A program made the translations under genes and the position numbers. This document shows positions 1-42,395 of a DNA stretch of 64,000 nt, piece by piece; position 1 is the first letter of the stretch; each line of letters starts with the position of its first letter. The notes under the pieces were generated by a model. It was not told where the DNA came from. It did not search any database and saw only the letters and a program-made list of their open reading frames with translations. The DNA is from Gaiellales bacterium (GTDB lineage Bacteria > Actinomycetota > Thermoleophilia > Gaiellales > Gaiellaceae): assembly GCA_038248655.1 (NCBI GenBank), contig JBBRXG010000003.1:14879-78878 (forward strand), read 5' to 3'.

Positions 1-464
1 ATCGCGCAGTCCGAGCCGACCGTGAGCACGATCCGCGCGCCCACCTCGAGGTTCGCCCCGGTCGGGACGTTCAGGCCGCCCGGCGGCTTGCGGAGGTCGC
101 GGAGCTCGACGCCGTGCCGGCGGGCGAGCGCGACCAGCTCCGGGTCGTCGGTCACGTACTCGTGCAGCCCGTTCTCGAGGTCGAGGCCCGCCGTGATCGC
201 GCTCTTCAGGAGCTCGTGCCACGCAGGCGGGAACCGCCCACCCTGCGTCGCGACGCCGACCAGCGCGGTCGTCGGCTCGTAGGCGAGCGCCTCCTCGACC
301 GTTTCGACGATCGGGACTCCTCCGTGGCTCTCCCCTGCGCGCTCGGAGTCGAGGATCGCAACCGTCGGCGCGTCGCCGTATCGGAGCACGCCGCGCATCG
401 TCTTCCCGTAGTGCGGGTCGCCGCTCCGGCCCTCGGCGAGAATCAGGTACCGCTTTCGGTTCAC
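1..464 (-). CDS. DUF1611-family protein (DgcN-like), N-terminal part; the 3' end runs off the window
   Basis: My own minus-strand translation from GTG at 464 gives VNRKRYLILAEGRSGDPHYGKTMRGVLRYGDAPTVAILDSERAGESHGGVPIVETVEEAL..., open to position 1. The pattern matches DUF1611 N-termini as I recall them. It lies directly downstream of a dipeptide-epimerase-like gene. Confidence 0.55.
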   Translation of the reverse strand, partial: MNRKRYLILAEGRSGDPHYGKTMRGVLRYGDAPTVAILDSERAGESHGGVPIVETVEEALAYEPTTALVGVATQGGRFPPAWHELLKSAITAGLDLENGLHEYVTDDPELVALARRHGVELRDLRKPPGGLNVPTGANLEVGARIVLTVGSDCA

Positions 465-472
465 TTCAGTAT

Positions 473-596
473 CGGGGTCTGACCCCGTGACGAGACTGCA
501 ACTTCTGCACGAGGCAAGCGTTCATGCGGTTCGCGTGCCGCTCCGTGTGCCTTCTGTCACGCTTTCGCCACGCTCTCGTAACGGGGTCTGACCCCG
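473..596. repeat. 124-bp MITE/REP-like element bounded by imperfect 23-nt inverted repeats (CGGGGTCWGACCCCGTKACGAGA)
   Basis: The left end at 473-495 matches the reverse complement of 574-596 at 21/23 positions. The core palindrome GGGGTCTGACCCC sits at 474-486 and 583-595. Confidence 0.7.
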
Positions 597-1588
597 AGTC
601 CGGGCTCCACCGATGGGGTCTGCACGCCGTCGACGAGCTCGACGCCCGGCCACGGATCGTCGGCGAGCAGGAGGTTTCCGTCCAGGTCCACGTGGTCGCA
701 CAGGCTCGCGATCGCGGCACCGGCGGCGATCCCGAGCCCCGACTCGACCATGCACCCGAGCATCACGCCAAGGCCGAGGGCGCGGGCGGCGTGCGCCATC
801 CGTACGGCCTCGTGGATCCCGCCCGACTTCGCCAGCTTGATGTTGACGCCGTGCGCGATCCGGGCGCAGGCGGCGACGTCGTGGAGCGTGTGACAGTCCT
901 CGTCCACGTAGATCGGAAGCGGGGCCCGCTTCTTCAGCTCGTGACCCTCCGCGTCGCCCGCCGGCAGCGGCTGCTCACAGTACTCGACGCCGAGCTCGGC
1001 CAGCTGCGGCAACGCATCGAGCGCCTGGTCGAGCGTCCAGAACTCGTTCACGTCGACCTGCAAAGGAACACCGGTCACGCCACGGACGGCGCGGACCCGC
1101 TCGACGTCGAGCCCGTCGCCGCCGCCCAGCTTCAGCTTCAGCCGTTTGAACCGCCCGTCGGCCTCTACACGTTCGGCGCTGCGCGCCATCTCGTCCGGCC
1201 CGGCGAGGCCGATCGTCCGTGCCGTCGGCGGCCCGAGGCGCTCGAGCCCGAGCACGTGCCAGACCGGTTCGCCGAGCAGCTTCCCGCACAGGTCGTGCAG
1301 GGCGGCGTCGATCGCCGACCGGGCCGCGAACTGCTCGGCCGGCAGACGCCCGAGCACCTCTTCGAGCGCGAACGGATCGTCTCCGAGGTCGCCGGCGACG
1401 AGCTCCGCATACCCGAGCGCGGACTCGGCCGACTCGTCATACCGATCGATCGGCGCCCCCTCCCCGAACCCGGACACTCCCTCGTGGCGGATCTCGACCT
1501 CGACCACGTCGGCCCTGTCCTGCGAGCCCCGCGCGATCGTGAACGTCTCGGCCAGCTCGAGAGAGACGATCCGGGCCCTCAACTCCAC
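557..1588 (-). CDS. Dipeptide epimerase, enolase superfamily (L-Ala-D/L-Glu epimerase / DgcA-like)
   Basis: 343-aa ORF with MR/MLE-type motifs: KLKLGG, QVDVNE, CEQPL, YVDEDC, NIKLAKSGG. The last 12 codons and the stop lie inside the repeat element. Confidence 0.8.
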   Translation of the reverse strand: MELRARIVSLELAETFTIARGSQDRADVVEVEIRHEGVSGFGEGAPIDRYDESAESALGYAELVAGDLGDDPFALEEVLGRLPAEQFAARSAIDAALHDLCGKLLGEPVWHVLGLERLGPPTARTIGLAGPDEMARSAERVEADGRFKRLKLKLGGGDGLDVERVRAVRGVTGVPLQVDVNEFWTLDQALDALPQLAELGVEYCEQPLPAGDAEGHELKKRAPLPIYVDEDCHTLHDVAACARIAHGVNIKLAKSGGIHEAVRMAHAARALGLGVMLGCMVESGLGIAAGAAIASLCDHVDLDGNLLLADDPWPGVELVDGVQTPSVEPGLGVRPRYESVAKA

Positions 1589-2833: not shown

Positions 2834-3319
2834 GTGGTGACGAAGCAGCTATGGGCACCGTGGCGGCTGGAGTACATCCGGCAGGCGGACGAGCTGGACG
2901 CGTGCGTGTTCTGCCGGGCAGCCGACGGGCCCGACGAGGATCTCCTCGTCGTCGATCGCGGCGAGGCCGCGTTCGTCCTCCTGAACAGGTTCCCGTACGC
3001 CTCCGGCCACCTGATGGTCGCCCCGTATCGACATGCCGGTGATTTCGGCGGGCTGTCGGACGCCGAGGCGCTCGAGTTGCACCGGCTGGCCGAGCGCGGG
3101 ATCGCCGCGCTCGCCGAGACCTTCGAACCGCAGGGCTACAACCTCGGCTGGAACCTCGGACGGACCGCCGGCGCCGGCGTGGTCGACCACGTCCATCTGC
3201 ACGTCGTGCCCCGCTGGGCGGGCGACACGAACTTCATGCCGGTGCTCGCCGACGTCAAGGTGCTGCCCGAGCACCTGAGCGAGACGCGCGCGAAGCTGGC
3301 GGCGGCCTGGCCCCGTTAG
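2834..3319 (+). CDS. HIT-family nucleotide hydrolase/phosphorylase (Ap4A phosphorylase-like)
   Basis: 161-aa ORF with the histidine triad HVHLHVVPR and the upstream FLLNRFPYASGHLMV block. Confidence 0.85.
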   Translation: MVTKQLWAPWRLEYIRQADELDACVFCRAADGPDEDLLVVDRGEAAFVLLNRFPYASGHLMVAPYRHAGDFGGLSDAEALELHRLAERGIAALAETFEPQGYNLGWNLGRTAGAGVVDHVHLHVVPRWAGDTNFMPVLADVKVLPEHLSETRAKLAAAWPR

Positions 3320-3699
3320 GCGTTGCCGAAGAAGAGCGGTCGGCCGACGCGCGCCTCGACCCTCAGGTACCGCCAGAGCCGAAAGCCCTCCACCTCCGAC
3401 TCGCGGACGAGGTTGCACACGGCCGCGACCGCCTCCAGTGACGGCGCGTCGGCCAGGATGTACGCCGTCCACGGCCAGGTCGCGGACGAGCCCACCATCA
3501 GCTCGTCGTCGTCGAGCGTGCCCAGCACCTCCAGCCCGAAGCGTCCGCCGAGGTCGGAGAACGCCCGGGTGATCCCCTCGACGATCGACGGCACGCGCGC
3601 CGGCTCCTCGTCGAAGAAGCTCTGCGTCACGCCGATGCAGAAGAGAACGCGGAAACCCTCCCCGCGGACGTTCCGATAGCTCGCCGCCGTCTCGCCCAT
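3316..3699 (-). CDS. Hypothetical protein
   Basis: ORF 3316..3753. I prefer the internal ATG at 3699 (MGETAASYRNVRGEGF...). GC3 is high and there is a 4-nt overlap with the HIT gene's stop. I do not recognise a family. Confidence 0.45.
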   Translation of the reverse strand: MGETAASYRNVRGEGFRVLFCIGVTQSFFDEEPARVPSIVEGITRAFSDLGGRFGLEVLGTLDDDELMVGSSATWPWTAYILADAPSLEAVAAVCNLVRESEVEGFRLWRYLRVEARVGRPLFFGNA

Positions 3700-3700
3700 C

Positions 3701-4945
3701 TTGCAACGTCTCCCGCCGCGTGAGACCGTACCAGCTGTGGAACGGCCGTTCACCAGTCGGGAGCGGGAGATCCTCGAGCTGACAGGGCGACTCGCGGACG
3801 CGTTCGCCGAGCGCGCCCCCGGGCACGACCGCGAGTCGACCTTCCCCTTCGAGAACTACGAGGACATGCGCGAGGCCGGCTATCTCGGCCTCACCGTCCC
3901 GGAGGAGCTCGGCGGAATGGGTGCGTCGCTGTGGGAGCTGATCGTCGCCCAGGAGCGCCTGGCGATGGGCGACGGCTCGACCGCCCTCGCTGTCAACATG
4001 CACGTCTCGCCGATCGGGCAGCTCGCCTCGCTCTGGCGTACGTCGGGCGACGTAGAGCTTGCGGACGTCCTCACCCGGGCCGGAGACGGCCGTCTCGTCT
4101 ATGCGTCGATGTCGGCCGAGCCGGGCGACCCGCTCCTGATGAGCTCGACGACGATCGCGCGCCGCGTGGACGGCGGTTACCGGGTGACCGGCAAGAAGAT
4201 CTTCGGCACCGAGTCGGCGGTCTGCACCGAATTCTCCACGCGCGCGCTCGACGAGGAGCGCGGCCGCGTGCTCTTCTTCCGCGTCCCGCGCGACGCCGAC
4301 GGTCTCCGGTTCAAGGACACCTGGGACACGATGGGCATGCGGGGGACGCTCTCGAACGACTTCGAGCTGGAGAACGTGTTCGTGCCGGACGAAGCGATCT
4401 TCCACTCCTACCCGGCCGACCACTTCGACGGGACGATGCTGAAGACGGTGTGGGGCTGGGCGATGCCGACCTTCGGCGCCGTCTATCTGGGGATCGGCGC
4501 GGGCGCGACGGCGCTCGCGCGCGCGCAGGTCGAGGCCCGCGGACGGCAGGGCGACCCCCAGGTCCAGCACGTGTTCGCGGAGATGGAGGTGCTGCTCGAG
4601 ACGGCGCGCGCGGTGCTCTACCGTCACGCGCAGGAGATGGACAGCGGAGCCCTGTACTCGGTGCCGGTGCAGGACGGCATGGCTCGAGCCGTGCTGACGA
4701 AGTACGTGTGCACCAACAACGCCGTCGCGATCGTCGACCGGGCCCTCCACGTCGTCGGAGGAGCCGGCTACTTCCGTCGTCTCCCGCTCGAGCGGATGTA
4801 CCGCGACGTCAGGGCGGGACCGATCATGCCGTACAACAACCTGGAGGCCCATGACCTGTTCGGGCGGAACGCGCTCGGGATCGAGATCGCGCCCGCCGTC
4901 CCGCTGGCCGCCGATGACGAGCCGTCGGCCAGCATCATCCCCTGA
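3701..4945 (+). CDS. Acyl-CoA dehydrogenase family protein
   Basis: 414-aa ORF with typical ACAD N-terminal, middle and C-terminal blocks (FPFENYEDMREAGYLGLTVPEELGG..., GMRGTLSNDFELENVFVP). An alternative GTG start is at 3737. Confidence 0.8.
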   Translation: MQRLPPRETVPAVERPFTSREREILELTGRLADAFAERAPGHDRESTFPFENYEDMREAGYLGLTVPEELGGMGASLWELIVAQERLAMGDGSTALAVNMHVSPIGQLASLWRTSGDVELADVLTRAGDGRLVYASMSAEPGDPLLMSSTTIARRVDGGYRVTGKKIFGTESAVCTEFSTRALDEERGRVLFFRVPRDADGLRFKDTWDTMGMRGTLSNDFELENVFVPDEAIFHSYPADHFDGTMLKTVWGWAMPTFGAVYLGIGAGATALARAQVEARGRQGDPQVQHVFAEMEVLLETARAVLYRHAQEMDSGALYSVPVQDGMARAVLTKYVCTNNAVAIVDRALHVVGGAGYFRRLPLERMYRDVRAGPIMPYNNLEAHDLFGRNALGIEIAPAVPLAADDEPSASIIP

Positions 4946-4968
4946 ACGACCAACCGAGGAGGGACAGC

Positions 4969-6138
4969 ATGCAAGGAACACGTTCACGACGAGTGCTAGC
5001 CGCGCTGGCTGCGCTCGCCGCCACTGCCGTAACGGCCGGCAGCGCGGGTAGCGCGCCGAAGCCACCCGTTCATCTGGCGATGATCTCGCCGCTGACCGGA
5101 CCACTCTCGTTCGTCGGCGTCGACAACCTCGCCGGCGCACGCGCGGCCGTTCGGGAGATCAACGGGCAGGGCGGCGTCAAGGGGCGGCGCATCGTCCTCG
5201 ACGTCTTCGACGACGGCTCCAACCCGTCGCAGGGCGTCGTCAACATGCAGCGAGTCGTCGGCAACAAGCAGTATCTCGGCGTCGTCGGCTCGGGCTTCAG
5301 CTCGGTCGGGCTCGCCGTCGCGCCGATCGTCTCCGCCGGACACATCCCGTACATCTCGATGGCCTCGTCGGCGGCGCAGGTCACCCCGGCGAAGCCGTAC
5401 TACTTCATGACGACCGCGACGAGCCGCCTCTTCGCGTACTCGATGGCGTTCGAGCTGCGCAAGGAGGGGATCAAGCGGATCGTCGTCATGGCCGACAACG
5501 GCGGCTTCGGGCAGGAGGGTGTGCGCAACGTCCGGGAGCTGGCGAAGGCCTTCGGGTTCACGATCGTCGACGAGATCATCTTCCCGCTCACCTCGACGAC
5601 CTTCACCGCCGAGCTGAACAACGTCAAGAGCTCGAACGCAGAGGCGCTCTGGCTCTGGAACGCGACCACGCTGGCAGTGACGATCACGAAGGAGATGCGC
5701 CAGCTGGGCCTGACGCAGAAGCTCGTCCTGACGGGCGGCAACGCCTCGGTCAACTACCTCCAGCCGGCCTGCCCGCAGGCGAACGGAGCGCTGGTGAACA
5801 CGTACCTCGGACCGATCGCCCAGTTCATCCGGAAGGACAACCCCTCGCGTGCAATCGCCCTGCGCGTGAACAAGCTGCTGGGCAAGCAGGGCTCGACCTT
5901 CAACTACGACGGCTACACCGCGGTGACGATGTTCAAGGCGGCGATGGAGCGCGGCGGCTTCTCGCGCGAGGCGATCAACCGGGCGCTCGAGACCAAGCTG
6001 AAAGGGTTCGCGGGCCCCGGCGGCCAGTACTACTACTCGGCCGTCAACCACTCCGGGCTCGGCTTGAAGAGCATGGTCGTGTCGCAGATCCGCGACTGCA
6101 AGATGCGGCCGATCGCGGGGCAGGCGCTGCCGAAGTAG
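4969..6138 (+). CDS. ABC transporter substrate-binding protein, LivK/Peripla_BP_6 type
   Basis: 389-aa ORF with a signal peptide (RRVLAALAALAATAVTAGSAGS) and LivK-like blocks (ISPLTGPLSFVG, GGVKGRRIVL). Confidence 0.85.
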   Translation: MQGTRSRRVLAALAALAATAVTAGSAGSAPKPPVHLAMISPLTGPLSFVGVDNLAGARAAVREINGQGGVKGRRIVLDVFDDGSNPSQGVVNMQRVVGNKQYLGVVGSGFSSVGLAVAPIVSAGHIPYISMASSAAQVTPAKPYYFMTTATSRLFAYSMAFELRKEGIKRIVVMADNGGFGQEGVRNVRELAKAFGFTIVDEIIFPLTSTTFTAELNNVKSSNAEALWLWNATTLAVTITKEMRQLGLTQKLVLTGGNASVNYLQPACPQANGALVNTYLGPIAQFIRKDNPSRAIALRVNKLLGKQGSTFNYDGYTAVTMFKAAMERGGFSREAINRALETKLKGFAGPGGQYYYSAVNHSGLGLKSMVVSQIRDCKMRPIAGQALPK

Positions 6139-6861
6139 GTGGCTCTCAACGGCCGAGCCGCAGTCGTCACCGGCGCGGGGCAGGGTCTGGGCGAGGCGAT
6201 TGCCCGGGCCCTGCACGCGCACGGGGCGGCGGTGGTGCTCGCGGATCTGAACGTGTCCCGGGCCGAGGCGGTTGCGCGCGCGCTGGGCGACCGCGCCTCG
6301 GCCGCGTTCGTCGACGTCCGCGAGCGCTCGTCTCTCGAGCGGCTACTCGACGACGTCACCGACCTCGACATCCTGGTCAACAACGCCGCTCGCACGGTCG
6401 CGCGGCCGCTCTGGGAGATCGAGCAGGCGGAGTGGGACGACGTCCTGGCGACGAACCTGCGCGGCGTCTTCTTCGGGTGCCAGGTCGCCGGCCAGCGCCT
6501 GCGCGAGCGCGGCTGGGGGCGAATCGTGAACCTGGCGTCGATCGGCGGGCAGCAGCCGGGGGCGATGGGCGCCCACTATGCGGCCTCCAAGGCGGGGATC
6601 GTGATCGTGACGAAGCTGTTCGCCGCCGAGCTCGCGCCGACAGGCGTGACCGTCAACGCGGTCGCGCCGGCGGCGGTGCGCACGCCCGCGTTCGACGAGC
6701 TCTCGGACGAGCAGCTCGAAGCGCTGAGGCGCCGGATTCCGGTCGGCCGCTTCGGCGAGCCCGCGGAGATCGGCGAGCTGGTCGCCTTCCTCTGCTCCGA
6801 GGCGGCAGGCTACGTCACCGGGGCGACGCTCGACGTCAACGGCGGCCTGCTGATGCGCTGA
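6139..6861 (+). CDS. SDR-family oxidoreductase (FabG-like)
   Basis: 240 aa with TGAGQGLG cofactor motif, NNAA, and the YAASKAG catalytic motif. Confidence 0.85.
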   Translation: MALNGRAAVVTGAGQGLGEAIARALHAHGAAVVLADLNVSRAEAVARALGDRASAAFVDVRERSSLERLLDDVTDLDILVNNAARTVARPLWEIEQAEWDDVLATNLRGVFFGCQVAGQRLRERGWGRIVNLASIGGQQPGAMGAHYAASKAGIVIVTKLFAAELAPTGVTVNAVAPAAVRTPAFDELSDEQLEALRRRIPVGRFGEPAEIGELVAFLCSEAAGYVTGATLDVNGGLLMR

Positions 6862-6869
6862 CGCCGGGC

Positions 6870-7940
6870 CTACGCCTCCGGCTCAGCGCGGCGCAGGCGC
6901 AGGCGCCTGCCGAGGCCGGCGACGGTCGGCAGAAGGCCGCGCGGCATGAACAGCATCACGACGATCAGGATCAGCGCGAAGACGCCGAGCTCGAAGACGG
7001 CCGGCGCGGTCAGCGGGAGCTCGAAGCCGAGGAGGTGCTCGCGCGTCCCGAGGCCGCGCAGCTCGTCGCGAATCCAGACGATCGCCACCGCGCCGAGCAC
7101 GGCTCCGTACACGCTGCCCAGGCCGCCGACCACGACCATCACGACGAACTCGATCGAGATCAGGAGGGGGAACGCGTCCGGCGAGAGAAACTGGAGCCGG
7201 AAGGCGTACAGTCCCCCGGCGAGCCCGGCGAAGGCGGCGGCGAGCACGAACAGGCGCAGCTTGTAGCCGGCGACGTCGATCCCGACGGAAGCCGCCTCCC
7301 GCTCGCCTGCCGCGATCGCCCGAAGCGCGCGCCCCGCCCGCGACCGGACCAGGTTGACCGCGATCACGAGCACGACCGCGACGAGCGCCCAGATCAGCGC
7401 GGCGAGCCGCCGCTTCGTCGGATCGGCGACGTCGGTGATCGTGTATCCGCCCACCGCGAGCGGCTTCGTGATCGAGAGGCCCGGGTCCTGGCCGCCGGTG
7501 AAGCGATCCTGGGCGAAGAGGACCGCGAGCACGATCAGGTGCAGCGCGAGGGTCGCGAACGCGAGGTAGTGACCCCGGAGCCGAAGCAGCGGCACCCCGA
7601 CGACTGCGGCGACCGCCGCGGTCAGCACGGGCGCAGCGGCGACCGCGAGGAGCGGATGGATGCCGGCGTTCGGATCGACGTAGCGCGTGGCGGGGTCGAC
7701 GCCCATCGTCAGGATCCCGGCCGTGTACGCGCCCAGGATGTAGAAGGCGCCCTGGCCGAGCGAGATCTGCCCGGCGAAGCCCATCAGCAGCGAGAGCCCG
7801 ATCGCGACCATCGCGGCGAGGCCCATGTCGAGGTAGATCGGCAGGTGATCGCTGCCGAGGCGGAAGGCGAGCCAGACGGCGACCGCGCCGCCGGCCGCGA
7901 TCGCGAGCACGCGCCCCGCAGCGAGCGTCCCCGCCCTCAC
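6870..7940 (-). CDS. Branched-chain-amino-acid-type ABC permease (LivM-type)
   Basis: This is the C-terminal 357 codons of ORF 6870..8846. The GTG at 7940 overlaps the upstream stop (GTGA). It is multi-TM, with LLMGFAGQISLGQGAFY. Confidence 0.8.
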   Translation of the reverse strand: MRAGTLAAGRVLAIAAGGAVAVWLAFRLGSDHLPIYLDMGLAAMVAIGLSLLMGFAGQISLGQGAFYILGAYTAGILTMGVDPATRYVDPNAGIHPLLAVAAAPVLTAAVAAVVGVPLLRLRGHYLAFATLALHLIVLAVLFAQDRFTGGQDPGLSITKPLAVGGYTITDVADPTKRRLAALIWALVAVVLVIAVNLVRSRAGRALRAIAAGEREAASVGIDVAGYKLRLFVLAAAFAGLAGGLYAFRLQFLSPDAFPLLISIEFVVMVVVGGLGSVYGAVLGAVAIVWIRDELRGLGTREHLLGFELPLTAPAVFELGVFALILIVVMLFMPRGLLPTVAGLGRRLRLRRAEPEA

Positions 7941-8809
7941 GCCACCTGCTCCTTCCGCGCCCGCCAGCCGATCAGGACGAGCATGATCACGAGCGCCGCG
8001 GCAAGCTCGTACTGGCGTGCCTGGTGGATCCCGATCCGGTCGCCGTACGCGACCACGAGCTGCTCGGCGATGCCGAGCACGAGCCCGCCGACGAACGCGA
8101 GCCGGATCGAGACGAGCCCGCCGAAGGCCGCCGCCGCGAACCCGTTGACCGCGATCGACACGTCTGCGTCGTAGGTGACCGGGACGATCGGCGTCACCAG
8201 CAGGCCGCCGATCGCCGACAGGAGCGCGGAGACGGAGAAGGTGGCGATCGCGACCGACCGCAGCGAGAGGCCGACGAGCTCGGCGGCGCGCACCGAGTCC
8301 GCCGTCGCGACCAGGGCGTGCCCGAGGATCGTGCGGTGCAGCAGGAGGGTCAGAAGCAGCGTCGCGACCACAGTCACGCCGGCGATCAGCACGTACTGCG
8401 GCTGGACGACGACCCCGCCGACCTCCCAGGCTCGCGCGGAGACCGCCGGGTACGTGTGCGGCCGGTCTCCGAACCCGAGCAGCTCGGCCGCCTGCGCGAG
8501 GAAGGCGATCCCGAGCGTGATCACGAGACTCGCGAGCGGGGTGGTCAGGCCCCGGATCCCGACGGCGACGAAGCCGGTGGCCGCGCCGACGAGGGCGACG
8601 ATCGCAACGGCAGCGGCGGCCGCGGCCGGAATCGGCCATCCGTGGTCGACGAACCAGACGGTGAACTGGCCGCCGAGGACGGCGAATGCGCCCTGGGCGA
8701 AGTTGACGATGTTGGTGGTGCGGAAGATGAGCGCGAACGAGATTCCGACGAGCGCGAACGCCGAGCCGACCGACAGGCCCAGGACGATCGTCTGCACCAG
8801 CTGGGTCAC
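7937..8809 (-). CDS. Branched-chain-amino-acid-type ABC permease (LivH-type)
   Basis: 290-aa multi-TM ORF (FALIFRTTNIVNFAQGAF). Confidence 0.85.
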   Translation of the reverse strand: MTQLVQTIVLGLSVGSAFALVGISFALIFRTTNIVNFAQGAFAVLGGQFTVWFVDHGWPIPAAAAAAVAIVALVGAATGFVAVGIRGLTTPLASLVITLGIAFLAQAAELLGFGDRPHTYPAVSARAWEVGGVVVQPQYVLIAGVTVVATLLLTLLLHRTILGHALVATADSVRAAELVGLSLRSVAIATFSVSALLSAIGGLLVTPIVPVTYDADVSIAVNGFAAAAFGGLVSIRLAFVGGLVLGIAEQLVVAYGDRIGIHQARQYELAAALVIMLVLIGWRARKEQVA

Positions 8810-9579
8810 CCGCCCACCCCGAGCCCGCCGCCGAGGTACGCGGCACGAACGAGCGGGTCCCGCTCGAGCTCCTTCGCCGGCCCCTCGAGCACCACTCGCC
8901 CGGTCTCGAGCACGTAGGCCCGCTCGCAGACGTGGAAGGCGAGCGCCGCGTTCTGCTCGACGAGCAGCAGCGCGACCCCCTCCTGCTCGTTCAGCGCGAG
9001 CAGGAACTCCGAGAGATCCTGGACGACCAGCGGCGCGAGCCCGAGCGAGAGCTCGTCGACCGCCAGCAGTCGCGGCTGGGCCATCAGAGCGCGGCCGATC
9101 GCGACCATCTGCTGCTCGCCGCCCGACGTCTTGCCGGCAGGCCGGTCCCGCAGCTCGCGCAGCTTCGGGAGCAGCTCGTAGACGGCCTCCAGCCTGGACT
9201 GCACGTCGGCCTTCCGCCGCGTGTAGCGGAGCGTCGAGGAGAGGAGCTCGCCGCTGAACTCGCGCCCGAAGGCGCCCAGGAGGAGATTGGCCTCGACGGG
9301 AAGGGTGGCGAAGACCTGCCGCCCCTCCGGGACCTGCGTGACGCCGAGGCGGACGATCGCGCGCGGCGAGTGGCCGGTGACGTCGCGACCGTCGATCCGC
9401 ACCCGCCCCGCCGCCGGCTTCACGAGGCCGCAGATCGCGTTCAGGAGCGAGCTCTTGCCGGCCCCGTTCGGCCCGATCAGCGCGACCCGCTCCCCGGGCT
9501 CCAGCCGGAGCGTGACTCCGTCGACGGCGACCGCGGGTCCGTAGCGAACGGCGAGGTCGGCGACCTCGAGCAGCGTCAT
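8806..9579 (-). CDS. ABC transporter ATP-binding protein (LivF-type)
   Basis: The internal ATG at 9579 gives MTLLEVADLAVRYG... It has Walker A GPNGAGKSS and the signature SGGEQQ, with an ATGA overlap to the upstream gene. Confidence 0.85.
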   Translation of the reverse strand: MTLLEVADLAVRYGPAVAVDGVTLRLEPGERVALIGPNGAGKSSLLNAICGLVKPAAGRVRIDGRDVTGHSPRAIVRLGVTQVPEGRQVFATLPVEANLLLGAFGREFSGELLSSTLRYTRRKADVQSRLEAVYELLPKLRELRDRPAGKTSGGEQQMVAIGRALMAQPRLLAVDELSLGLAPLVVQDLSEFLLALNEQEGVALLLVEQNAALAFHVCERAYVLETGRVVLEGPAKELERDPLVRAAYLGGGLGVGG

Positions 9580-33764: not shown

Positions 33765-35213
33765 TTACCCTCGGGTCGCGAGGAGGGTCCGTCCGGTCAT
33801 CTCCGCCGGCGCCTCGATGGCGAGCAGGTCGAGGACGGTCGGCGCGAGGTCTGCGAGCTCGCCGTCCGGGCGCAGGTCCCCGCCGGGCAGTGTGACGACG
33901 AGCGGTACCGGGTTCGTCGTGTGGGCCGTGTGCGGGCTGACGCCGTCGGCGGCGAGCATCTTCTCGGCGTTGCCGTGGTCGGCGGTGACGAGCGAGACGC
34001 CGTCTGCGAGTGCGACGGCGGCGAGCACATCTCCGAGGCAACGGTCGGTCGCCTCGACAGCCGCGATCGCAGCCGGGATCGAGCCCGAGTGGCCGACCAT
34101 GTCCGGATTTGCGAAGTTGACGATCCCGAAGCCGTAGTCACGGCCGATCTCGGCCGCGAAGCGGCGAGCGACCTCCGCCGCCGACATCTCGGGCCTCCGG
34201 TCATAGGTGCCGACGTCACGCGGCGAGGGAACGAGCACCCGCGTCTCCCCGGGCCACTCGTCCTCGCGACCACCGTTGAGGAAGTAGGTCACGTGGGCGT
34301 ACTTCTCCGTCTCGGCACAGTGGAGCTGGCGCACCCCCTGGCGGGCGAGCACCTCGGCGAGGGCGTCCGGCACCTGCTGCTCCTCGAAGACGACCGGACA
34401 GTCGAGCTCGTCGCTGTACCGGGTCATCGTCGTCAGATCGAGGCCGGCGCCGAGCAGGAGCTGCGACAGCTGGCGTGCCCGGTCGGGCCGGAAGTTGAAG
34501 AAGATCACCGCGTCCCCCGGCTCGATCCCGGGCCGACCCTCGAAGTGGACCGGCTCGAGGAACTCGTCGGTCACACCGGCGTCGTACTGCCGTTGCACGT
34601 ACGTGAAGGGGTCAGACCCCGTTACCGGAGTGCAACGGACGATCGCATCGTAGGCCCGTTCCGTCCGCTCCCGTCGCCCGTCGCGGTCCATTGCGTAGTA
34701 CCGGCCCGCGACGGAGGCGATCCGGTCAACCGGCAGCTCGGCGAGGTCGCCGAGCGCGGCGTGCGGCGAGACGTCGCGCCCGTCGGTGAAGGCGTGGATC
34801 CACGTCTTCTCGAGGGCGAACCGGAGCAGGGCGCGGAGGTGGTCGATATGCGAGTGGACGCCGCCGTGCGAGACGAGGCCGAGCAGGTGGACGCGGGCGC
34901 CGCGCTCGAACGCGTCCCGGAGCGCCGGGTTCTCGAAGAACGACCCGTCCTCGATCGCCTTGTTCACCCGCATCAGGTCCTGGTAGAGGATCCGCCCCGA
35001 GCCGATCGTCAGATGGCCGACCTCGGAGTTCCCCATCTGGCCCGGCGGCAGACCGACCGCGGCGCCCGATGCCTGAAGCGTCGTGTGCGGGTGCTCTGCC
35101 CAGAGCCGGTCGAAGACGGGGGTCTCGGCGAGATCGACCGCGTTGCCGGGACCCGGCGGGGCGAGCCCCCAGCCGTCCAGGACGACGAGGACGACGAGCG
35201 GGACCGGGTTCAG
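33765..35213 (-). CDS. gpmI: 2,3-bisphosphoglycerate-independent phosphoglycerate mutase; probable CTG start
   Basis: The ORF track starts at the Met of GQMGNSEVGH (35036). The in-frame upstream 59 codons encode the conserved N-terminus (NPVPLVVLVVLDGWGLAPPGPGNAVDLAETPVFDRLW). The only plausible start is the CTG at 35213, which overlaps the tpiA TGA. Confidence 0.85.
   Translation of the reverse strand: MNPVPLVVLVVLDGWGLAPPGPGNAVDLAETPVFDRLWAEHPHTTLQASGAAVGLPPGQMGNSEVGHLTIGSGRILYQDLMRVNKAIEDGSFFENPALRDAFERGARVHLLGLVSHGGVHSHIDHLRALLRFALEKTWIHAFTDGRDVSPHAALGDLAELPVDRIASVAGRYYAMDRDGRRERTERAYDAIVRCTPVTGSDPFTYVQRQYDAGVTDEFLEPVHFEGRPGIEPGDAVIFFNFRPDRARQLSQLLLGAGLDLTTMTRYSDELDCPVVFEEQQVPDALAEVLARQGVRQLHCAETEKYAHVTYFLNGGREDEWPGETRVLVPSPRDVGTYDRRPEMSAAEVARRFAAEIGRDYGFGIVNFANPDMVGHSGSIPAAIAAVEATDRCLGDVLAAVALADGVSLVTADHGNAEKMLAADGVSPHTAHTTNPVPLVVTLPGGDLRPDGELADLAPTVLDLLAIEAPAEMTGRTLLATRG
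34591..34639. repeat. 49-nt near-palindrome inside gpmI containing a copy of GGGGTCAGACCCCGTTAC
   Basis: CCGTTGCAC-N9-GGGGTCAGACCCC-N9-GTGCAACGG. The 18 nt at 34609-34626 are identical to the reverse complement of 578-595. Confidence 0.7.
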
Positions 35214-35920
35214 CCGGTCCCTCTCGGAGCAGACCCGACGATCGCCGCGAACGAGTCGACGTCGAGTGAGGCGCCTCCGACGAGCGCGCCGGAGACGTCC
35301 GGCAGGGCGAGCAGGTCAGCCGCGTTCTCCGGCTTGACCGAGCCGCCGTAGAGGATGGGCACGTCGAGCAGCGCCCGAATGAACGCATGCGCCTCCTGAA
35401 CCTGCTCGGGCGTCGCCGTTCTGCCTGTTCCGATCGCCCAGACCGGCTCGTAGGCGACGACGAGCTGCTCGTGCGCTTCGAGCACCGCCAGCTGGCGCCT
35501 GAGCACGTCCTCGGTCTTGCCGCGCCCGCGTTCCTCCTCCGTCTCGCCCACGCACGCGATCACCCAGAGGCCCGCCTCGAGCGCAGCGCTCGCCCGCCGG
35601 GCGACCCCGTCGTCGGTCTCCCCGAAGAGGAGGCGGCGCTCGGAGTGCCCGACGATCGTCCCGTACACGCCGAGCTCCTGGAGCATGGTGGCCGAGACCT
35701 CGCCGGTGAACGCCCCTTCCTGCTCCCAGTGGACGTTCTGGGCGGCGACCGCGATCTCGGTGCCGGCGAGCGCCTGGACCGCACCGGCGAGCGACGGAAA
35801 GGGCGGGCAGACGGCGACGTCCACTCCCTCGACGTCCGCCAGCCGCTCGCGAAGCGCCCCGCAGTACCAGGGCGTCTCCTGCGAGCCCTTGTACATCTTC
35901 CAGTTCCCCGCGATCAGCAC
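35210..35920 (-). CDS. tpiA: Triosephosphate isomerase
   Basis: 236 aa: MLIAGNWKM, VGHSERR, AYEPVWAIGTG. GTG start with an AGGA RBS. Confidence 0.9.
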   Translation of the reverse strand: MLIAGNWKMYKGSQETPWYCGALRERLADVEGVDVAVCPPFPSLAGAVQALAGTEIAVAAQNVHWEQEGAFTGEVSATMLQELGVYGTIVGHSERRLLFGETDDGVARRASAALEAGLWVIACVGETEEERGRGKTEDVLRRQLAVLEAHEQLVVAYEPVWAIGTGRTATPEQVQEAHAFIRALLDVPILYGGSVKPENAADLLALPDVSGALVGGASLDVDSFAAIVGSAPRGTG

Positions 35921-35944: not shown

Positions 35945-36057
35945 GGGGTCAGACCCCTGCCATGTTCGGAGCGGCCACCGGTGGGCCAAACGTCCCTGCA
36001 AAGGCCGCTCATAGCATGTTGGATGCTCTGCAAGGGGGGTCAGACCCCTGCCGTGTC
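35945..36057. repeat. Pair of direct repeats GGGGTCAGACCCCTGCCRTGT flanking a 78-nt structured spacer (pgk-tpiA intergenic)
   Basis: Core palindromes lie at 35945-35957 and 36036-36048. The repeats match at 20/21 nt. The spacer holds additional hairpins (GGCCACCGGTGGGCC, AGCAT-N5-ATGCT). Confidence 0.7.

Positions 36058-41651: not shown

Positions 41652-42395
<744 letters not shown>

Follow-up and report, generated by a model that had tools for sequence, protein, structure and literature searches.

The question raised by the locus at positions 473-596 is what kind of DNA fills the 124 nt at the junction of a dipeptide (L-Ala-D/L-Glu) epimerase gene and a DUF1611 gene, and how it came to supply the end of the epimerase reading frame. 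The whole stretch analysed, hereafter the window, is 64 kb (64,000 nt) long. Both genes at the junction lie on the minus strand, and the closest named homologues of the epimerase, as well as of the gpmI product encoded further along the window, are from Gaiellaceae MAGs with about 80% amino-acid identity. The features of the junction are as follows.

1-464, minus strand: 5' part of the DUF1611 gene, which leaves the window; GTG start at 462-464; aligned to the DUF1611 genes of relatives
446-473, minus strand: outer flank of the left REP, REP-like, GATACTGAAGTGAACCGAAAGCG, with the DUF1611 GTG (462-464) inside; identified by nhmmer (E = 8e-5) and by comparison with the empty site L123
474-486, no strand assigned: left REP core, GGGGTCTGACCCC
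487-503, plus strand: inner flank of the left REP, GTGACGAGACTGCAAC; its first 9 nt finish the 23-nt arm that pairs with 574-596
496-573, no strand assigned: stretch between the 23-nt arms, overlapping the right REP flank; 63% G+C against 71% for the window
551-582, minus strand: right REP flank, containing the box CGAAAGCGTGAC, which holds the epimerase stop codon TGA (557-559)
583-595, no strand assigned: right REP core, GGGGTCTGACCCC; the coding (minus) strand reads GGG GTC AGA CCC C, the G-V-R-P of the epimerase tail
557-1588, minus strand: dipeptide epimerase gene; stop codon at 557-559; tail GVRPRYESVAKA; the last ~9 codons and the stop REP-derived

The sequence of 473-596 reads as described in an earlier note on this DNA, which had taken it for a MITE/REP-like element. 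The left arm (473-495, CGGGGTCTGACCCCGTGACGAGA) and the reverse complement of the right arm (574-596, CGGGGTCAGACCCCGTTACGAGA) agree at 21 of 23 positions, as claimed there, the two mismatches being the central W and one G/T. Each arm is indeed centred on a palindrome of 13-15 nt, and its perfect 13-nt core, GGGGTCWGACCCC, is present as five exact copies in the window, starting at 474, 583, 34608, 35945 and 36036. With up to one mismatch allowed, 0.20 copies are expected in the window, and none of 100 shuffles gave five. When up to three mismatches were allowed, the window gave 21 matches as compared with 31.7 in shuffled sequence, and hence no credible degenerate copies were added; nor did an nhmmer profile of the 46-nt unit defined below find additional copies in the window. 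The claim of related copies at four other places in the window was thus not borne out, as only three further core sites lie outside the pair, and that at 34608 is not an insertion.

As judged by folding, the 124 nt, taken as single-stranded DNA, form one long hairpin (-38.9 kcal/mol, z = -6.7), and the minus-strand RNA of 460-610 is also strongly structured (-68.4 kcal/mol, z = -3.9), in agreement with the hairpin that had been proposed. Because the core is its own reverse complement, the orientation of a unit can be read from its flanks only, and the inner flanks of this pair are inverted. Besides the inverted 23-nt arms, the segments 451-500 and 560-609 form 50-nt direct repeats with 72% identity. 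The right REP, with its flank at 551-582, matches the family profile with nhmmer E = 1e-11, a value for a copy that is itself in the profile training set. On the left, REP-like sequence continues beyond 473 to about 446 (nhmmer E = 8e-5), so that the limits 473-596 hold for the arms and the hairpin but not for the REP-like part, which includes the DUF1611 GTG. No promoter consensus, terminator-like site or U-tract was found in a scan of 300-800, and in an Rfam search only tRNAs scored above the gathering threshold, the sole match below it being a plant microRNA hairpin (E = 0.11). A literature search for the 13-mer gave none, and its 11-mer substrings gave unrelated matches only. Elsewhere in the window, a CCG/GCC trinucleotide run of about 45 nt is found at 42316-42363.

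The C-termini of the best 120 epimerase homologues consist mostly of PGLGV followed by RQAVPSPR or a near variant, giving proteins of 341 aa, and this general ending (PGLGVRQAVPSPR) overlaps the DUF1611 start in most orthologues. The number of residues after PGLGV ranges from 3 to 13 and is usually 8 (RQAVPSPR). The view that epimerases of this family end soon after PGLGV therefore needs amending: the tail in the window differs from the usual one, but its length barely does, the protein having 343 aa against the usual 341, a small net change. As PGLGVR is conserved in orthologues without the element, G-V-R is ancestral. Thus, of the last 12 epimerase codons and the TGA that the element had been thought to contribute, the TGA and about 9 residues are element-derived.

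In the comparison of orthologous C-termini that had been proposed, epimerases of loci without the element end differently, and their genes overlap DUF1611. Minority tails among the best 120 homologues are RPRFEAATSV, RPRYETPAGA, RPRAEAPA and RPRSET. Tails related to that of the window were accordingly found elsewhere (GVRPRFEAATSV, GVRPRYETPAGA, GVRPRAEAPA and GVRPRSET), yet all four loci carry the core or a degenerate copy of it at this place and are therefore filled sites, so that the claim of a tail supplied by inserted DNA stands.

In the empty site L123, where the epimerase tail is RQAILDPR and the DNA is CTCGGTGTCAGGCAAGCGATACTTGATCCTC, the epimerase and DUF1611 genes share 32 nt, the GTG start of the latter lying within GGT GTC, two codons of the former. 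The PGLGV codons of the epimerase and the DPHYG codons of DUF1611 are 55 nt apart in L123, as compared with 185 nt (window), 195 nt (L121) and 184 nt (L122). Two cores are present at the junction in each of the window, L121 and L122, the left core of L122 being degenerate, and REP DNA therefore accounts for the extra sequence (184-195 nt with cores against 55 nt without), the insert amounting to about 130-150 nt. The junction of L204 has one degenerate unit (88 nt) and that of L205 a decayed single copy, while L206 and L207 have unrelated spacers. The insert boundaries resemble the element itself (GGTGTCAG versus GGGGTCAG on one side, AAGCG on the other), and no target-site duplication brackets the insert in the alignment of empty and filled sites.

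In a tree of the epimerases, filled junction states are scattered among empty ones, which indicates repeated insertion or repeated loss; the tree does not fix the order of gain and loss with confidence, and in principle the compact junction could be the derived state. The locus L063 was considered as a third comparison of empty and filled sites and was set aside, as its gene content differs and no clean alignment was obtained. In L122, extra genes, including one for an IstB_IS21-like ATPase, occupy 4591-9547 between CorA and the epimerase. The window has only a tRNA-Arg there, and the neighbourhood is therefore rearranged relative to L122.

Two further sites in the window carry the core.

35945-36048, no strand assigned: second REP doublet, an insertion at the pgk/tpiA junction; cores 35945-35957 and 36036-36048
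34588-34640, no strand assigned: REP look-alike hairpin in the gpmI coding sequence, with the core at 34608-34620; no insertion

The core at 36036-36048 has the pgk stop codon, TGA (36040-36042), at its centre. In the empty sites L208 and L210, pgk ends in AIPPG or AIPPA directly followed by the stop codon, and the tpiA start lies 11-13 nt further, whereas the junction in the window has about 138 extra nt and a longer pgk tail (..IPPARRDTAGV), of which about 8 C-terminal residues are repeat-derived relative to the relatives. The Gaiellaceae MAG locus L209 has another doublet between pgk and tpiA, with a spacing of 65 nt and the same right-hand boundary as in the window. Hence, this orthologous site is filled in the window and L209 and empty in L208 and L210. 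The flanks of the pair 35945/36036 are direct rather than inverted. On the sequence evidence, this pair is an insertion similar to that at 473-596.

The copy in gpmI resembles a REP closely. The segment 34588-34640 folds as a 49-nt hairpin (z = -4.05), and it is matched on both strands by a profile of the 46-nt unit from which it had been left out (E = 3.5e-6 and 8e-6). An in-frame insertion was considered here and rejected, as there is no gap at this place relative to solved iPGM structures and no change in length among 119 orthologues. A stretch of equal length (45 residues, typically PVTGTDPVTYVQQ) is present in all 119 orthologues in which it could be delimited, and the conserved segment ..VRCTPVTGSDPFTYVQRQ.. 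holds the exact REP core. The orthologous DNA of L208, GGGACAGACCCCGTGACGTACGTGCAAC, is near-core, that of L210 contains the exact core in its version with the alternative central base, and GSDP is found at the core position in 5 of 120 orthologues. The equal length in orthologues and the near-core DNA of L208 identify the gpmI copy as ancestral coding DNA and not an insertion, and REP look-alikes thus exist. Convergence, conversion or an ancient origin may each explain the resemblance.

The gpmI reading frame (minus strand) is open for 93 codons upstream of its first ATG (35036), over 35036-35318 of the window. This stretch encodes the conserved N-terminus ..LVVLVVLDGWGLAPPGPGNAV.. and contains no ATG, GTG or TTG; the public record of the gene gives a 423-aa product without the conserved N-terminal part. 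The CTG at 35212-35210, which overlaps the tpiA stop codon, is a candidate start.

A scan for CGGGGTCTGACCCCG across one genome per species matched at least 120 eight-kilobase blocks. Among the matches listed, many are from MAGs assigned to Gaiellaceae, Gaiellales, Thermoleophilia or "uncultured Actinomycetes", and others are from Oxalobacteraceae, Vicinamibacterales, Omnitrophota and further groups; 58 of the 120 blocks listed hold two or more cores. The bases adjoining the core are GTGAC, GTTAC or GTCAC (GTNAC) in what is here called family A, and other lineages differ. The flanks often lengthen the palindrome, and the sequence that does so is specific to the lineage (e.g. GTGAATAAAC-core-GTTTATTCAC). 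In 215 distinct copies, Watson-Crick complementarity between the flanks at offsets 2-10 was 0.36-0.49, as compared with 0.25-0.30 when the right flanks were shuffled among copies. This excess, together with the diversity of the stems, indicates that the core often forms the tip of a hairpin whose stem varies.

Doublets with a core spacing of 91-159 nt recur in Actinomycetota loci, and proteobacterial core pairs are tight (15-17 nt) and inverted. The latter were seen in L013, L027, L037, L076, L078, L085, L089, L100 and L104 (Duganella, Rugamonas and a Burkholderiales MAG), where the two cores have opposite central bases, an architecture unlike that of the Gaiellaceae doublets. In L087, a Gaiellaceae MAG, positions 802-888 comprise three REP units in tandem, each a core plus GTCGTGTCTCGAACGGACATGGCC, repeated every 37 nt. 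REPs typically number tens to hundreds per genome. Orthologous loci of relatives gave 6 cores in about 77 kb, a density biased by the choice of these loci as orthologues of REP-bearing sites. Across genomes, units occur singly, as direct pairs, as inverted pairs and in tandem arrays, and what is conserved is the palindrome with one flank; the spacers and interiors of doublets show no conservation above a shuffled null. As judged by these alignments, the demonstrable conserved unit is a single REP of about 46 nt and not the whole doublet.

A link to a transposase was found by searching for genes between core pairs 500-1000 nt apart. In L115 (Gaiellaceae) and L103, a gene for a Y1/HUH transposase has the core on both sides in inverted orientation, and tblastn revealed three more such genes beside the core or a variant, in L046, L017 and L073. 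Those of L046 and L017, and likewise those of L127, L183, L187 and L191, are flanked by the core in inverted orientation. Besides Gaiellaceae, the carriers of core-flanked Y1/HUH genes include further Actinomycetota MAGs. The central base (A/T) was tried as a means of orienting the units and was abandoned, as it gave no consistent orientation relative to the transposase gene.

The gene in L073, a gammaproteobacterial MAG (3093-3638), has inverted flanking copies of the variant core GGGGACAGACCAC, and two exact GGGGTCAGACCCC copies lie about 560-750 nt from it; its protein falls outside the subclade of the other core-associated RAYTs. In the metagenome contigs L183 and L187, the RAYT genes (1097-1871 and 1966-2757, respectively) have 3-5 exact cores on each side, the upstream cores all with central T and the downstream ones all with central A. 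The RAYT homologue of L103 (4301-5014) has a C-terminal helix-turn-helix extension (residues about 200-237, similar to sigma-70 region 4 and HTH_23), which is absent in the Gaiellaceae RAYT.

Two of the transposases scored 49.6 and 33.9 bits against Pfam Y1_Tnp (PF01797; cut-off 23), and 87.6 and 79.4 bits against NCBIfam REP_Tyr_transpos (NF047646; cut-off 80), one protein being marginally under the latter cut-off. The core-flanked transposases retain the HxH motif as well as the catalytic Tyr. The best solved relative of the RAYT profile is E. coli TnpA(REP) (PDB 4ER8, E = 1e-6), and the IS200-type TnpA follows with about 0.07. These data identify the enzyme as a RAYT rather than an IS200 TnpA.

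In a reverse test with 80 metagenomic loci of RAYT homologues, 5 (L127, L149, L183, L187 and L191) have an exact core no more than 400 nt from the gene, and a sixth, L203, has one core about 490 nt off. In a neighbour-joining tree, all homologues with an exact or near-exact core fall into one high-GC subclade, and no homologue in the remaining clades has the core alongside. RAYT genes flanked by inverted REPs, with a REP sequence that follows the RAYT clade, are the pattern reported for REPs and RAYTs (PMC2817692, PMC5581495), and the core-flanked genes and their restriction to one subclade conform to it.

The window is tied to this system by the REP directly upstream of the L115 RAYT gene, which is 38/46 identical, ungapped, to 596-551 (minus strand) of the window, including the box CGAAAGCGTGAC with the epimerase stop codon; L115 thus holds the repeat subfamily of the window, and its RAYT is flanked by inverted REPs. 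As tblastn found no RAYT gene in the 64-kb window, what is said of the partner enzyme and of copy number across the genome is extrapolated from relatives.

Taken together, these data make it very probable that 473-596 is a doublet of REPs (repetitive extragenic palindromes), REPIN-like, of a family with the core GGGGTCWGACCCC whose partner is a RAYT (REP-associated tyrosine transposase, Y1/HUH) related to E. coli TnpA(REP). The assignment draws on sequence comparison, which gives membership of a repeat family, association with the transposase in relatives, and presence or absence at two orthologous junctions, epimerase/DUF1611 and pgk/tpiA, with remodelled frame ends. It agrees with the idea of a small non-autonomous, REP-like hairpin pair that lands on the 3' end of a gene and rewrites it, given the RAYT flanks, the empty sites and the shared stop-codon sequence. 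Measured against the short, imperfectly palindromic units of about 20-45 nt that characterise REPs, the core here has 13-15 nt and the family A unit is conserved over about 46 nt. Since the doublet interiors are not conserved between genomes, replication of the doublet as a whole, which the strict definition of a REPIN implies, is conjectural.

The reading that competes best with REPs dependent on a vertically inherited, single-copy RAYT is that an active IS200/IS605-type IS has these repeats as its ends and the small units are its transposase-less derivatives, or PATEs (palindrome-associated transposable elements). Elements of the IS200/IS605 type have ends that are recognised as hairpins, insert without target duplication and can excise precisely. 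They and PATEs share the transposase superfamily PF01797 with the genes found here, to which can be added the one score just under the RAYT cut-off, the resemblance of the gene with its flanks to an insertion sequence, and the occurrence of the core in several phyla, which could reflect horizontal spread. However, the RAYT profile is far nearer to TnpA(REP) than to IS200-type TnpAs, no TnpB partner gene was seen beside the five transposase genes inspected, and the left and right flanks are one symmetric unit, short hairpins or arrays rather than distinct left and right ends. What separates the two readings is solely the status of the transposase, which the REP reading takes to be a RAYT, domesticated and single-copy; a RAYT is favoured by the comparisons with PDB and NCBIfam, and the IS reading is considered improbable.

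A MITE with terminal inverted repeats of 23 nt, descended from a transposon of the DDE type or the Tn3 family, would fit the small size, the absence of coding capacity and the 21/23 match of the arms, the first 10 nt of which (GGGGTCTGAC) presumably resemble the start of the Tn3 inverted repeat. Correia/NEMIS of Neisseria and ERIC are likewise small non-coding repeats with inverted ends, located at or in gene ends, that can alter mRNA stability and reading-frame ends. They have longer terminal inverted repeats, target-site duplications and a DDE-element origin, none of which was seen here: no duplication was found at the boundaries in the comparison of empty and filled sites, and the sole transposase found alongside the core is a Y1/HUH enzyme. 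Moreover, the conserved unit is a palindrome with one flank, in single, direct, inverted and tandem arrangements. Thus, only the second half of the label MITE/REP-like is retained, and a MITE is very unlikely.

No greater weight is given to the palindrome as an operator bound by a dimeric transcription factor or by some other DNA-binding protein of the host, with the pairs as regulatory sites of operons. Such a role might be read from the perfect 13-bp palindrome, from a pair spacing of about 9-10 helical turns and from the glycolytic operon gap-pgk-tpiA-gpmI, which contains three of the five sites. The sites are, however, at the 3' ends of genes and not at promoters, no promoter consensus was found, the core flanks transposase genes in several lineages, and close relatives differ in having or lacking the sites, along with some 130 nt of additional DNA. 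The extension of the palindrome by unrelated flanks in many genomes also fits a hairpin and not a fixed duplex site. A non-mobile origin, in which the hairpins arose at their present sites as RNA structures serving as terminator, processing site or stabiliser, would account for the strong predicted folding and the location between cistrons, but the lack of a U-tract terminator and of an Rfam match, the clean empty sites and the 38/46 match to a unit at an unrelated locus of another genome make this extremely improbable.

The REP doublet with a RAYT partner has its closest known counterparts in the E. coli REP/BIME with TnpA(REP)/YafM, the REPINs of Pseudomonas fluorescens and the REPs of Stenotrophomonas (PMC2817692, PMC3116915, PMC5581495). 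Shared with them are short, over-represented palindromic units at gene junctions, present as singlets, doublets and clusters; a Y1/HUH gene flanked by inverted units, with the REP sequence tracking the RAYT clade; and a doublet, here of about 110-124 nt, that folds as one long hairpin. Unlike in the known systems, the host belongs to Gaiellaceae (Thermoleophilia, Actinomycetota) and not to Proteobacteria, the core is a perfect 13-nt palindrome found in several phyla, and many doublets have direct rather than inverted flanks. Also, both doublets in the window overlap the end of the upstream coding sequence and are thus not strictly extragenic. The GT(A/G)G head of proteobacterial REPs is absent next to the core, which GTNAC abuts instead. 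A conserved 5' GT(A/G)G head is a mark of the classical proteobacterial REPs (PMC2817692) and defines proteobacterial groups but not every RAYT group (PMC5581495). The family is therefore new for the Gaiellaceae lineage and has an unusually conserved core, and the REP/REPIN-RAYT kind as such is already known.

By analogy with studied RAYTs and IS200/IS605 elements, a RAYT whose gene lies elsewhere in the genome would act in trans, recognising the REP units as single-stranded DNA hairpins and, as for TnpA(REP), cutting and rejoining them. At the epimerase junction, the insertion replaced the tail ..RQAVPSPR with ..RPRYESVAKA and provided its stop codon, placed 92 nt of strongly self-pairing sequence between the two reading frames, and shifted the DUF1611 start to the GTG inside the REP flank. 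If E. coli REPs are a guide, the most likely present effect would be a loss of translational coupling, and the hairpin may be a stable, protective structure at the 3' end of the upstream cistron.

A more far-reaching reading, which we hold to be unlikely on present evidence, is that the 13-nt palindrome is a recognition element which one RAYT subclade has preserved unchanged across several phyla and that the units enter sites already similar to the element, possibly guided by homology. It is suggested by near-matches to both ends of the 46-nt unit in the ancestral epimerase junction (GGTGTCAGGCAAGCG), by the pgk junction, which was hit at least twice, and by the gpmI segment, which matches the profile on both strands and has arrived at the exact core in 2 of the orthologues whose DNA was read. 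If true, REP units could overwrite coding DNA or be seeded from it, beyond intergenic space.

To our knowledge, REP/REPIN-RAYT systems have been studied almost only in Proteobacteria, and Gaiellaceae are an abundant, barely cultured lineage of soil. The present data document a REP family well in Gaiellaceae; its core is easy to search for, its partner transposases are identified, and its empty and filled sites are clean. For annotation, repeats are the source of tails such as ..GVRPRYESVAKA and of stop codons that fall inside GGGGTCTGACCCC, and the start of the downstream gene may be misplaced by gene callers. The epimerase/DUF1611 junction further provides a concrete outcome of such an insertion, in which two overlapping, probably translationally coupled genes are separated and both frame ends are REP-derived or REP-like.
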